Shown here: positions 56,601 to 59,624 of the stretch, piece by piece
Position numbering within the stretch: the first letter of the stretch is position 1
How the letters are laid out: every line of letters starts with the position of its first letter
Virus record (IMG/VR): IMGVR_UViG_3300033066_000360
Location: 20,154-84,153 of that record
Length of the DNA stretch: 64,000 nucleotides
Origin: a virus
Lineage: Duplodnaviria; Caudoviricetes
Strand: one strand, 5' to 3'
Notes under the pieces: generated by a model
What the model saw: the letters and a program-made list of their open reading frames with translations, nothing else
What the model was told of the DNA's origin: nothing
Database searches by the model: none
Program-made: the position numbers and the translations under genes

Positions 56601-59600
56601 AAAATTGGCCTCTTGGAATCCGCTAAAGGCTGTCTTCTCGGCGCGATCTCTTGCTACGTTCTGAGGCTTATCGCCAATCCATGGCTGTAGAGCGTCTGGA
56701 CCCATGAGTATCTTCCCAAGATATTCAGCCTCAGACTCCGATCCTCTTTGATGCTTATCCAGATATTGAAGAGTCTCATCAACACCGGCCATGGCCGCAA
56801 GAGTGCCAAATGCCCTTCTTGCCAAGGAGTTGGGATCAATGTTACGTAGCTGATATGTCTTCTCTCCGGTTGATGGATCAATTACCTCTTTCCTGCTTCT
56901 CCAAAAAATCTTGAGAGGATCACCGTCTGAGTCTCCAAGAGAGAGCATCTCGAATTCCGGAGAGATGTTTACGGGAGCCCAATCCGGCATCTCGGAGTTA
57001 TAGATGACATTCATTGGAGAAAGAGCAACCTGTCCCGGCTCTCTTCCAGCGAATACGGTTCCAACAATATCCCCAGTCTTTGCATTTGCAAGAATCTTAT
57101 CTACTTTGTCCTCTTTGCCGCCACTTCTAGCGAATAGCTCTTCAAGTTGTCCGCGACCCATCATGATCGCGTTCTTACCGGCAAGATCCTTGTCTGCGCT
57201 GTATTGTGTATAAATACCCTCGGCCTGAGCCTTCCCTATTTCTGCACGAGCTTCTGGGCTGGAGATGGACTGAACAATATCTGCATTAACTCTTTTGAGA
57301 GCCTCTTCTCTTGCCGGTAATCCTGCCGCAGAGAATAGTTGCATGTAGCTTCCGATTGCTCCCCTATCATCCTTGAGACGCATCATCTGAGATGGAGATG
57401 GAACAACTAGTCCATTTACCTCGATTTTGTTATTGCTCTCTGGATCCCACCCATACTGGGTCCTTAGAACATGACCAAGCCTGCTTAGTTTCTTCCCCGG
57501 CTCTACGTCCGGGAAGTCCTCTTTACCCAGTGGAGCAAAGCCGCTAAGTGATGTTACTTTCGCACCCTCATCCAGAGCAGTAAGCATTCTGAATGTCGGC
57601 GTTTGAGAGAAGCCTCTAGAGTACTTGTCCCATTCATCTGTATCCATGATGCCAGCATGAAACGCTCTTTCCATGTCGGCAAATGTCATTCTTGATGGAG
57701 CGTTGTATTCTGCCGCTGTCTGTGGAGCAATAATCGGAGAGTACGAGAATCCATTGTTTCTCAGATTCGGATTCTTTTTGTAGAACTCTCTTCTCCAAAG
57801 ACCCTCGTATCTATTCAGTTCTCGTTCAATTCTTGCGTCTTTATCTTGCTGCGCTTCTGGACCGGAAAGGATTTTATCCGCCTTGCCTCTATAGCTACGG
57901 CTTGATGAATACCAATACTGGTGCCGAGCGTCCAAAAGACCCGGACCCTTGTTTACATCTCGTTCGTTTGCAAGAATTGTTCTTTCCGCCTGCTGCGCTG
58001 AAAGAGTCTGATCAAAACCAAGAACTCCCTTCATGAACTTTGTCTTCATGGAACCGGACGGAAGAACTCCCGCCACTCCCCATACCAGTTGGTTCATGTG
58101 GTAGGCTTCGCCACCCTGAGGCATTAATCCCTCATCATCAGATTCGAAGACAATTCCTCCAACCCTTTTCCAGTCTCCCCATGAGTCATCCTGAATTGTT
58201 TGATTCCAACCACCGCGAACCAGGCCCAATACTCTTTGTCTTTCCGCCTTATCCGCCGCAAAGGATTCATCACTTTGTCCAATGCGACGAGATAGCTTGT
58301 TTGTTACTGCCGCAAATGCGACCTCTCTGTTGAGAACGCTTTTCCCAACAGAAATCTCCTGCTTATCCCCGAAAATTGCATTTAGAAGCTGATTCGCTGC
58401 CTCGCTGTGAGATCCCACAAAGAACATCGGGGTCCTGTCAACCTTTCTTCCTCTCCATCCAGAGCTAGGTAGTTGTAGCTCCTGATCCCCAAATGTCCCG
58501 AGAGTTTGCGCCCAACCACCCTTGAGCATACTTGTCTTGGGATCAAATGGATTACTGCGAATTGAGGATTGATCTAGAACGAGACTTCCCGGAGCAATGG
58601 CAGTAGTATTCGAAAGATTTGTTTTATGGAACCTTCCTCCGGCAACAGAGGCAGTTTGAAGCATATCCAAGGAGCCAACCATGCGACCCTCGCCCAATCC
58701 AAACGCCGGGTTTGTTGTTGCTCCAAGAATGAGACTACGCCCCTGAGAATACTCTCTTCTTGACATTCCAACAACCGGGATCATGGAAGTAAGTGTAGTT
58801 ATTCCACCGGCCTCGGAGTAGCGTTCTCGGCTAATACGTCTACCAGCACTAATAACCTTTCCAATTGTGTTGTCCCAAAAACCGTATGTTCCATCAGCAC
58901 GCTTCTCCAGTCCAGTATTCCGAATGTAATCATCCTCCGACATGAAGCTTGTAAAAGAGTATCCACCCGGACTTCTTCCAGTTGTGATGCTAAAGAATGA
59001 CTGATCTTCTCTTCCGGGGACGCCTAATCTAGTTCTGTCAACAAGGTTGCTTCTTCCAATCACATAAGCGAGTGGGGCCTCATACATAGCTCCACCCTCT
59101 CCCTGACCCTTACCTGTATAGGCTTGGTAGGGATCCATCATGGAGTTTAGGGCCTCGTGAAATGTGGCCGAGCCAAGTCCTACATGCGTGTTCGATGCCA
59201 CCTTTAGAGCGCCAGCAACAAGTGCACCCATGAACTCTACGCCGGGAGCCCAACCAGAAAGTGCCCTGTTGATTGTGCTGCTTCCTCTAAAAGTATCGGA
59301 AGTTAAGTCGGCATAGTAAGCATTCTGCTCTCTATCTTGTGGGTGTCCAGAAATAACCTTAACACCAAGAGGAGCTATCTTGGAGCCAACAATAAGTCCA
59401 TCTCTACTATCTCCATAGTCGCGCATTTGCTTGACAGAAAGAAGATAGCTGTTTGATCTGTCCTCGCCAATTGTGATACGGAATCCACCCGCATAGTCGA
59501 TATTCGGATCGTCAGATGCAAGTTTATCTTCCCAATCGACGGATACTCCTTTAACTCCAAGTTCTCTTGCTGTATTTAGAATTGCGCTTCTTAGGTGATC

Positions 59601-59624
59601 CCTATTGGTTGGATTTCTTGGCAT
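50616..59624 (-). CDS. tape measure protein fused to a two-barrel RNA polymerase-like domain and a DEDDh exonuclease
   Basis: Position after chaperones; C-terminal Gly/Ala-rich and Q/E/R coiled coils, GYANGG; R861-x-P..P-x8-D898SDGD; D1367-T-E1369, GHN..D, H1541-x4-D1546. Confidence 0.85.
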   Translation of the reverse strand: MPRNPTNRDHLRSAILNTARELGVKGVSVDWEDKLASDDPNIDYAGGFRITIGEDRSNSYLLSVKQMRDYGDSRDGLIVGSKIAPLGVKVISGHPQDREQNAYYADLTSDTFRGSSTINRALSGWAPGVEFMGALVAGALKVASNTHVGLGSATFHEALNSMMDPYQAYTGKGQGEGGAMYEAPLAYVIGRSNLVDRTRLGVPGREDQSFFSITTGRSPGGYSFTSFMSEDDYIRNTGLEKRADGTYGFWDNTIGKVISAGRRISRERYSEAGGITTLTSMIPVVGMSRREYSQGRSLILGATTNPAFGLGEGRMVGSLDMLQTASVAGGRFHKTNLSNTTAIAPGSLVLDQSSIRSNPFDPKTSMLKGGWAQTLGTFGDQELQLPSSGWRGRKVDRTPMFFVGSHSEAANQLLNAIFGDKQEISVGKSVLNREVAFAAVTNKLSRRIGQSDESFAADKAERQRVLGLVRGGWNQTIQDDSWGDWKRVGGIVFESDDEGLMPQGGEAYHMNQLVWGVAGVLPSGSMKTKFMKGVLGFDQTLSAQQAERTILANERDVNKGPGLLDARHQYWYSSSRSYRGKADKILSGPEAQQDKDARIERELNRYEGLWRREFYKKNPNLRNNGFSYSPIIAPQTAAEYNAPSRMTFADMERAFHAGIMDTDEWDKYSRGFSQTPTFRMLTALDEGAKVTSLSGFAPLGKEDFPDVEPGKKLSRLGHVLRTQYGWDPESNNKIEVNGLVVPSPSQMMRLKDDRGAIGSYMQLFSAAGLPAREEALKRVNADIVQSISSPEARAEIGKAQAEGIYTQYSADKDLAGKNAIMMGRGQLEELFARSGGKEDKVDKILANAKTGDIVGTVFAGREPGQVALSPMNVIYNSEMPDWAPVNISPEFEMLSLGDSDGDPLKIFWRSRKEVIDPSTGEKTYQLRNIDPNSLARRAFGTLAAMAGVDETLQYLDKHQRGSESEAEYLGKILMGPDALQPWIGDKPQNVARDRAEKTAFSGFQEANFSNADIQNAITRDVEAHGEMGIYNLVQSLRAGLNRGAIDKAYDNDSRMDRIKQVTGISASGFAATSLGAWYQYPLDLQAIPGSIGNLYTAFNMNALSRMEDGKSMAGIVGQIAGGLVGDVTSKWKYVHSPEMIGALLGKDADEMRQLRDKALAAQQGTYEERLAFAREAESANLTGSTLGRVMNVAAALQFDNEVYRGTIRPMMDANGKTIADKFERSSGLRRTTQNAGEWKQEWKEVSEETMKAVKAGREDEDLYASVGRIRRRVGFARDWYKKLSKGIPESIAKAFRSLKLDNMPDEEVRRNQEVINTGIGAALPEDYQETVKKKAEAVALASVTPPPRDQAKLDSLGDVGGKVVAVDTESVFQDEPTRSQAVWQMSTVDENGNVDTKLYPVGKWSKEHWGNNNPISDEVGVRKGNESVKALYTSGKLSADELRVVTSTGENKSGEDYRAWAGKLKEGDIIVGHNITGADDAWLGGKGASKATILDTVEIERVIGGVEGKNTLGQTMARRAELMRRSGDNSWEKYENSDNWHIASFDAQATRDLFQAQVNEASEMPSEVLAALADPDNWTPGNREVADGYGTRQAKFFKRALGVREARSASPRDASPEKVSQFLTNVRGSGRFKGSWIPAAASGGRGGSNKTGWTPPTGVGDGSGGAGGGGQPPASGFGMSDDQWRSLEGHMQNLTQGMLQGNKFAQQMASSMWNVLRGQQNKTNAMYTPGVSAGRNRAITARFGPNPNPYLTDDERLKEMQEYGQGMGRIDELMDIVGDEGSSPSKLEAAGRSLQSARRAALVATVYDTQGKPFDEDALKMAGTLGNAATRALEKARNIRHGVGPDSAEYEKAHVEDLARRRDIRKNIGKDELEAAMKRGDVNVQPFEKALENLTKKMENFGKAIDDAGDSSKSLKDRLQNIKVAEYEAKEAKDKAMGVVNATGDEKLRGAMKAKLEATADDRGVSPGAVLTEEQGDALSEIRTPKPKTGSAKGIERLMGGMFLFQMARDWRMTLGPMLSGAAETDQNRVELAAQLGMGDRSFSGQGGPIHDAMRRWQGIESGRNYAGYATMGGIATALGGRPDLVASNPLVQGIGSAVTAGVGAAVGLGFASSAMGGVAAGGLGAILAGLAVPVGLGLGIAAGVGYGIGYGGDYSSRAADTIATGQQGIFGTGYSKQISDYIRGRVGADIRDLGSAGSVSYAQLGIGEQIGRAFTRFTELPGDILSGKGFQPSYDKAMRPSVIGAGEVRGAAIKALAMDNNPQMGSVWENTKMPWDMREKTMGMLIANGISNTSPDFARLTERIGYGADPNVVMSNAQQIGAAMGTGAAQLAGVSNIYNTDKSELGQLRFAESFRRLGGNGAMEMRLLAGQNFSMARRAVNMQADAMPEIDDGGMLGAKQSNEIMVAGSLMGMNLTDWQDKYARTQRNLNAGQYQALMGFMSNDPVYSAIFARGNNVLPGNSWRSATRVDLKNGGVGLFQQSLGGLTQAMDSAAGWEKQISGDTQPTGMTTDYVRGQLESIPTVQAMMRQTGVSFTNEDIDAMSGKYYEGKGGIPALQERYARMAYQNQLAGIGISFQESNIARQFELNVNRPQKDLQLALSGASQFGGSVATPYGQYNATGSFNFQQMNMAFQWQGQQIQYGRQQVQFGWEQQSLDMSRAGQLQSRAMGQYDLGYQRRELDLGHQYFQQDWQFNQQKRQLQFGWQMEDAERNIRRATGFEKQQLIRERGRAAEMFNLDSQQLNREKTREEDKYKREDERWRLQLANFQTMAALEDKRWNLEREQLEQRKKWTEEDFQREKDQHARDVAQFEENRKLAEINYKQEQERWVAEKKFGDEQFKLQQARLGLQATEIKNAEELRLKIDSINTEAATRVITNSSAMITQMEDFFNTLFKAMGVTIPFPRKEPEYRSGPAKGYANGGRFEAGDEILLGDAGPELVRFDRPGNVIPATRTAAMIGRGNSSVVENTPVYVTIDGKVIAEAVITHGGDALRRNTRRTLL

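Follow-up and report, generated by a model that had tools for sequence, protein, structure and literature searches.

Closest described systems and the locus

To our knowledge, an RNA polymerase (RNAP) carried in the virion as part of the tape measure protein (TMP) has been shown experimentally only in phage P23-45 and its close relatives among the Thermus phages. The subject of this work is a gene of 3002 codons (P0001) whose product may be another protein of this kind. The gene lies on the minus strand of a 64,000-nucleotide stretch of viral DNA (Duplodnaviria; Caudoviricetes), here called the window, which corresponds to positions 20154-84153 of the 84,153-base IMG/VR record IMGVR_UViG_3300033066_000360. 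An earlier note on this DNA had proposed a TMP with a two-barrel RNAP signature in its N-terminal part, and the sequence strings and residue numbers that it quoted were all found in the open reading frame (ORF), with D898, D900 and D902 at nt 56933-56919.

In P23-45, gp96 is a promoter-directed DNA-dependent RNAP for the pre-early genes (PMC10770324). The gene of the non-virion RNAP (nvRNAP) is among those transcribed by this TMP-fused virion RNAP (vRNAP), and the nvRNAP then takes over (PMC10770324). Relatives of gp96 occur in P74-26, G20c and TSP4 (PDB 8H2M/8H2N; Chaban et al. 2024, PMC10770324). The nvRNAP itself, called gp64 in P23-45 and gp62 in P74-26 (PDB 8F5M), is a free-standing protein of 616 aa with a clamp and is located outside virions (PMC10770324). 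The vRNAP gp66 of the crAss-like phage phi14:2 (PDB 6VR4) is a component of a podovirus-like particle rather than a tape measure, and QDE-1 of Neurospora (PDB 2J7N, 7Y7P) is a eukaryotic RNA interference enzyme. The cellular RNAPs are multisubunit and carry many extra domains.

The protein studied here resembles gp96 in several features. The RNAP module, predicted in our case, is N-terminal to the TMP in one ORF, and the proposed order of the two double-psi beta-barrels (DPBB) is DPBB-B followed by DPBB-A. In both proteins an R-x-P motif is followed 37-38 aa later by D-x-D-G-D. Moreover, the TMP body has a transmembrane segment (putative here) and the phage has a separate second RNAP, for which there is a candidate in this genome. 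On the other hand, gp96 has 5002 aa and a DFDGD loop, whereas the present protein has 3002 aa and DSDGD. The connector between the barrel zones is also different, being a short disordered stretch of 67 aa in gp96 and about 220 aa, helical in the model, in this case. A DEDDh exonuclease-like domain lies here between polymerase and TMP, and none is mentioned in the gp96 paper (PMC10770324). Furthermore, the 3002-aa protein gave no metallopeptidase match. Hence, the view of the earlier note that the architecture departs from that of P23-45 is borne out by the length, the added domain and the lack of a peptidase match. The note had also assumed another host group, and this is likely: the GC content of the window is 44-50%, and by both composition and sequence the phage falls outside the Thermus phages.

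Regarding sequence, no global homology to gp96 was found. Searches of 50,697 phage records, P23-45 among them, by blastn and tblastn gave no DNA or protein match, and hhalign against gp96 aa 1-1200 returned a probability of 0.4%. Therefore, this TMP falls outside the gp96 sequence family. Judging from the structural model described below, it is a predicted TMP-fused vRNAP and a probable functional analogue of gp96, from a sequence-unrelated family with a predicted RNAP-exonuclease-TMP architecture. We consider it probable, with good confidence, that the gene encodes a three-part virion protein composed of an N-terminal single-chain two-barrel RNAP, a DEDDh exonuclease-like domain and a tape measure body.

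Predicted fold of the putative catalytic barrel

The AlphaFold2 model covers aa 401-1340 and was built from an alignment of seven sequences. It has a predicted local distance difference test (pLDDT) of 67.4 and a predicted TM-score (pTM) of 0.57, and aa 801-910 were modelled at pLDDT 70-88. This last stretch is formed by two strands, a helix, three strands, a short helix (P889-S895), a loop (LGDSDGD) and a strand, an order which we take to be the arrangement found around the catalytic stretch of RNAP beta'. The model carries a double-psi beta-barrel with the Asp triad in its loop, as the earlier note had anticipated, and the nearest structures are RNAP catalytic subunits, including P23-45 gp96.

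Four structure searches concur on RNAP largest subunits, QDE-1, P74-26 gp62 and P23-45 gp96. With Foldseek against the PDB, the best 50 matches listed were all RNAP largest subunits (beta', Rpb1, A190, Rpo1 and Pol IV), with a best E-value of 1.5e-4 and a probability of 0.96. The cellular subunits beta' (E. coli RpoC), Rpb1 and A190, which share the catalytic barrel with the Asp triad, were top matches of Foldseek and also of the VIA-wide structure search, which is independent of Foldseek and covered 48,161 chains. The search of BFVD gave a best E-value of 1.4e-6, with crAss-like proteins, the phi14:2 structural protein S0A2C3, giant-virus RNAP subunits and LEF-9 among the matches; those of the phi14:2 gp66 and QDE-1 type were weak (0.002-0.015). 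In the ESM Atlas shape search, 8 of the 10 nearest cluster rows were RNA_pol_Rpb1_2 or LEF-9.

The extent of these alignments is also informative. Those with Pol I, Pol II, beta', QDE-1 and gp62 cover model residues ~394-890, that is, aa 794-1290. The polymerases co-align over 160-470 residues. With the RNAP subunits the alignments extend over 200-470 aa, up to model residue ~890, at a root-mean-square deviation of 4-7 Å and without a residue-level assignment of the bridge helix or the trigger loop. The match with non-polymerase barrels (VCP-N, expansin, formate dehydrogenase) is limited to the barrel of ~85 residues. In absolute terms these scores are middling, and the global TM-scores are low, as can be expected when a model has several domains and few aligned sequences behind it. 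The main argument for a predicted RNAP fold is the uniform RNAP identity of the structural neighbours.

The best viral neighbours in BFVD, A0A8S5SD80_1, A0A172Q021_2 and A0A075BUT7_2 (E-values from 5.6e-4 to 1.4e-6), are unannotated parts of large proteins. One is a "minor tail protein" from an uncultured siphovirus, and the others are encoded by Acinetobacter phage ME3 and Microcystis phage MaMV-DC. According to their modelled shape, they may be further unrecognised phage RNAPs.

Motif spacing and conservation

The spacing around the Asp triad was compared with that of E. coli MG1655 rpoC. In beta' the distances are 35 residues from R425 to D460 and 9 from P451 to D460, and here they are 37 from R861 to D898 and 9 from P889 to D898, in agreement with the parallel drawn in the earlier note. 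The distance from R-x-P to the first Asp is 35-37 in the TMP family, compared with 35 in E. coli beta' and 38 in both gp96 and gp64. The top local hhalign matches of the DPBB-A block fall on the DxDxD loops of gp96, of a second polymerase candidate of this phage (P0008) with its family, and of beta'. The best local match to gp96 places DSDGD on DFDGD with 36% identity over 44 columns (pairwise E 0.037) and runs into the following helix ('IDPNxLARRAFGTLAAMAGV' versus 'VDPHRLEVFQTLMAHAGL'). The best local match to beta' (GDSDGDPmKvF) places DSDGD on NADFDGD (E 0.047). As whole comparisons, the hhalign runs of the N-terminal family against gp96, gp64, the P0008 family, beta' and beta gave nothing significant, with no sequence similarity to gp64 and none of significance to beta' beyond the loop.

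Only six relatives were found among about 6-15 billion proteins, of 2947-3151 aa and 28-86% identical, using word-indexed and exhaustive hidden Markov model searches of 5.8 and 1.8 billion sequences. The profile of the resulting seven-sequence alignment returned only the closest relative from the 5.8-billion-protein collection, and conserved-peptide scans of IMG/VR, JGI metagenome contigs and GTDB genomes showed no relative. In this alignment, with identities down to 28%, the residues K527, K532, K559, R861, P863, E892, D898, D900 and D902 are invariant in the seven sequences; persistence of the Asp triad in homologues was something on which the earlier note had made its proposal depend. The loop reads GDSDGD in five members, ADSDGD in one and GDADLD in one. 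The three residues of the triad are among nine invariant Asp in a region that holds 88, and the 21-aa window around DSDGD, tied with a block near aa 984, has the top conservation score of aa 1-1350 (0.59). In a protein of 3002 aa, D.DGD is expected by chance 0.08 times and D.D.D 0.7 times. The motif by itself is therefore not beyond chance, but its conservation is. The highest conservation of the entire protein is found in blocks at aa 2600-2990.

Candidate second barrel

The earlier note had suggested that an upstream pair of lysines, K527 and K532, could belong to the second barrel. Both are located in 'GSMKTKFMKGVLGFD' ('MKTKFMKGV'). By eye, 'MKGVL...TILANERDVNKG' resembles 'NKGVI...DIVLNPLGVPSR' of beta, 'LKGTVIV' of gp96 and 'WKGVIV' of gp64, and the 'KGV' lysine motif of beta is a possible counterpart of K532-G-V. 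The protein-language-model look-alikes of aa 430-620 (score 0.76) were uninformative. The invariance of the lysines bears out one part of this suggestion, while the barrel itself was modelled below pLDDT 50 and has no profile match. Regarding the two-barrel architecture, it is predicted for DPBB-A only, and a second barrel is plausible from the sequence pattern.

Exonuclease-like domain and tape measure body

The domain that follows the polymerase-like region presents the ExoI D-x-E, the ExoII Asp and the ExoIII H-x4-D in this order. These motifs are kept in six of the seven members and were lost in one (P0006). Another homologue (P0007) matches phrog_192, "DNA polymerase exonuclease subunit", with an E-value of 2.2e-6. 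The domain encoded in the window has only sub-threshold matches (phrog_403, E 0.06; NF006602, E 0.0012), other members of the family show weak matches to DnaQ and DinG-exo NCBIfam models, and a profile search of the PDB sequences gave no match for it.

Concerning the C-terminal part, the 3002-aa gene occupies the tape-measure position in the siphovirus tail module of an uncultivated long-tailed phage, and the gene order around it is the same in all five relatives with readable contigs. The protein-language-model look-alikes of aa 1990-3002 were all TMP clusters (score 0.86-0.87), which is taken as a lead only, and a Q/E/R-rich tract is present at aa ~2600-2870. The RNAP-like fold (aa ~800-1290) and the TMP-like body (aa ~1690-3002) share one polypeptide, with the former being N-terminal. 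The features of this gene and of its neighbours are listed in Table 1.

Table 1. Positions in the window of the parts of the tape measure gene and of nearby ORFs.
Feature	Position	Strand	Basis
Whole gene, predicted RNAP / exonuclease-like / tape measure fusion, 3002 aa	50616..59624	-	Single uninterrupted frame; six homologues of 2947-3151 aa
N-terminal region, aa 1-400	58425..59624	-	Conserved at 30-40% identity
Candidate DPBB-B zone, aa 497-570	57915..58136	-	Invariant K527, K532, K559, R567, H568; resemblance by eye
Predicted double-psi beta-barrel A, aa 801-910	56895..57224	-	AlphaFold2 model
R861-E-P863, proposed equivalent of beta' 'NRAP' and gp96 'RNP', 37 aa upstream of first Asp	57036..57044	-	R861 and P863 invariant
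Putative metal-binding loop DSDGD, D898/D900/D902	56919..56933	-	Invariant in 7 of 7; modelled as a loop flanked by helix aa 889-895 and strand aa 903-908
Helical region past the barrel, aa 911-1290; conserved blocks near aa 939, 984, 1038, 1080	55755..56894	-	Co-aligns with RNAP largest subunits
DEDDh (DnaQ-like) 3'-5' exonuclease-like domain, aa ~1355-1600	54825..55562	-	D1367-x-E1369, H1473-N..D1479, H1541-x4-D1546
Gly/Pro-rich linker, aa ~1625-1690	54555..54752	-	22 Gly in aa 1601-1700; lowest conservation and most gaps in the alignment
Tape measure body, aa ~1691-3002	50619..54554	-	TMP look-alikes; conserved blocks aa 2600-2990
Hydrophobic Gly-zipper, putative transmembrane segment, aa 2091-2150	53175..53354	-	Kyte-Doolittle 19-aa windows of 1.5-2.1, here only
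124-codon open frame, possible frameshift extension	59602..59976	-	Stop-to-stop ORF list and frame arithmetic
170-aa ORF, putative tail assembly chaperone	59894..60406	-	Directly upstream of the TMP gene; gene of 164-176 aa at the equivalent place in all relatives; no family match
440-aa ORF, putative major tail protein	60455..61777	-	Position only; genes of 438-562 aa there in relatives; no family match

Alternative explanations

Several observations weigh against a TMP-borne polymerase. Pfam, PHROGs, PDB sequences (searched with the whole protein and with parts of it) and other sequence methods gave no significant RNAP match, and at 0.04-0.05 the E-values from pairwise hhalign are marginal. 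The structural model rests on seven sequences. At motif position 2 there is a Ser where the residue is usually aromatic, and one homologue has DADLD, without the Gly. Regarding the second barrel, aa 497-564 were modelled at pLDDT ~25-30, and hhalign of the K527/K532 zone against beta and gp96 matched nothing. Finally, Pfam and PHROGs gave no TMP family match at threshold for the body, the best being phrog_5062 (E 0.056).

If the double-psi beta-barrel were that of a non-polymerase, which in a TMP would most ordinarily be a cell-wall-cleaving domain (MltA, 3D, RlpA or expansin-like) with catalytic aspartates, the RNAP likeness would be due only to the shared barrel. Such barrels match ~80-90 residues, while the RNAPs, QDE-1, gp62 and gp96 co-align for 160-470 residues beyond the barrel, and the 50 listed PDB matches were catalytic subunits of RNAPs without exception. 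The contiguous DxDxD with R-x-P at 37 aa and Pro at 9 aa upstream, as in beta', also points away from a muralytic function, which we regard as very unlikely. A muralytic barrel of the 3D/RlpA type was tried as a candidate and rejected, given that Pfam, including 3D and DPBB_1, showed no match up to an E-value of 1 and the structural match was of ~85 aa only. The module could otherwise be an inactive relic of an RNAP, without catalysis and retained only because it plugs or spaces the tape measure structurally. The unusual Ser, the homologue with the altered loop and the lack of a confident model for the second barrel are in favour of it, and the loss of exonuclease motifs in P0006 shows that domains in this TMP can decay. 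Against this, none of the three Asp, the R-x-P and the two lysines varies between lineages with only 28% identity, and the DSDGD block shares the top conservation of aa 1-1350, as would be expected if purifying selection acted on an active site; a relic is thus quite improbable.

The module could also be a genuine two-barrel polymerase homologue with a job other than early transcription. It could work on single-stranded templates, as QDE-1 or YonO-type enzymes do, and act as an injected primase, start the second strand or make a decoy or regulatory RNA, with the neighbouring exonuclease processing DNA or RNA ends. Fold similarity cannot distinguish between template preferences. However, gp96, the sole experimentally studied TMP-fused member, transcribes pre-early genes from promoters (PMC10770324), and a phage with an nvRNAP still requires something to transcribe the nvRNAP gene first. 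This other use appears unlikely, and a TMP-borne polymerase that transcribes early genes is the interpretation followed below.

Genomic setting

The end of the record was joined to its start (window end 64000 to record position 1), and this produced an intact gene of 477 aa. Along its full length it shares 92% identity with a 480-aa gene found at the capsid position of a relative. Because the joining recreates this gene, the record holds the complete genome in circularly permuted form, and the CheckV completeness estimate of 65% is contradicted by the rejoined ends. The head-tail module, on the minus strand, opens with MazG, a 571-aa gene, an SPP1-type portal at the record start and the capsid-sized gene, and continues with genes of 440, 170, 3002, 133, 1617 and 1196 aa and a collagen-like tail fibre. 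Family searches with the immediate neighbours of the 3002-aa gene matched no known family because the lineage is very diverged. The 124-codon frame is +1 relative to the gene at the chaperone position, overlaps its 3' end and terminates within the start of the TMP gene. A programmed frameshift may produce it, as happens with other tail assembly chaperones, though the frame is unusual.

In addition, the plus strand carries an array of 33 tRNAs covering nearly all amino acids (window 3515-12149). The early and replication region on the same strand encodes an RNA ligase (PF09414, 12527-13546), a DnaB-like helicase (22072-23478) and a Rad52/22-family annealing protein (28256-29119). The phage genome also has Ro60/Y-RNA genes.

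Second polymerase candidate and early-region signals

P0008 is a protein of 830 aa encoded outside the window (record 15488-17980, plus strand) with the motif 'IRHP...(46 aa)...GVDFDMD'. All five homologues keep its residues R398, H399, P400, D444, D446 and D448, and no family or PDB sequence match was obtained for it. By its motif, P0008 is a candidate for a second, non-virion two-barrel RNAP like P23-45 gp64. If it is a real RNAP, the genome would mirror the vRNAP/nvRNAP pair of P23-45. In one relative the P0008 homologue adjoins PolyA_pol and TROVE (Ro60) genes.

Two types of repeated signals were also observed. Six plus-strand sites in the early region (record 8718, 9043, 9353, 9736, 10238 and 11518) share the conserved tail TTTTATTTTTTTA, which is TATTTATTTTTTA at the sixth, and five of them have a variable GC-rich hairpin. 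Their sequence suggests a dedicated type of terminator; close to its left end, P23-45 likewise carries a conserved terminator motif. Moreover, the hairpin-loop motif CCCTACCGG occurs 5 times versus 0.25 expected, at gene or tRNA junctions on the plus strand (window 977, 3248, 7468, 14716 and 63330). It could be a processing, promoter or terminator signal.

Proposed mode of action and significance

By analogy with gp96, whose likeness (PMC10770324) is the ground on which polymerase activity is inferred, the phage probably injects its own transcription enzyme along with its DNA. The two-barrel (beta/beta'-like) RNAP would span aa ~400-1300, with the Mg-binding loop D898-S-D900-G-D902 in the double-psi beta-barrel and the basic residues K527 and K532 probably supplied by a second barrel preceding it. 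The protein would be assembled within the tail tube and expelled at infection, when it would form or join an envelope channel through its hydrophobic Gly-zipper segment. The N-terminal polymerase would then meet the incoming DNA end and transcribe the first-entering genes without the host RNAP. The gene of P0008 may be among the first transcribed, in which case P0008 would take over. The exonuclease could have a role in trimming or proofreading RNA 3' ends, in processing DNA ends or in attacking host nucleic acids.

It is also conceivable, but rather doubtful, that polymerase and DEDDh exonuclease form one injected machine. If this is true, it would be the first two-barrel RNAP with a covalently attached 3'-5' exonuclease. 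The exonuclease might then trim the nascent RNA at its 3' end or proofread it, much as cleavage of the Gre/TFIIS type serves cellular RNAPs. It might instead act on the incoming end of the DNA, or break down nucleic-acid signals of the host, as transcription begins at the pore formed by the tape measure.

This kind of protein has been known since P23-45 gp96 (2024), and what is new here is the unrelated sequence family, the different architecture and the different sort of phage, an 84-kb carrier of moderate GC content with 33 tRNAs and Ro60/Y-RNA genes. A sequence-unrelated family with the layout of gp96 would show that self-sufficient transcription coupled to DNA entry by means of the tape measure is recurrent and not an oddity of thermophiles. 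The exonuclease-like domain would be a new module for an injected transcription enzyme, and it bears on proofreading or end-processing at the first transcription. Furthermore, the family would offer a very diverged branch in which to study the minimal core of two-barrel polymerases, and the giant "hypothetical" TMPs of metagenomes would be worth screening for enzymatic heads.

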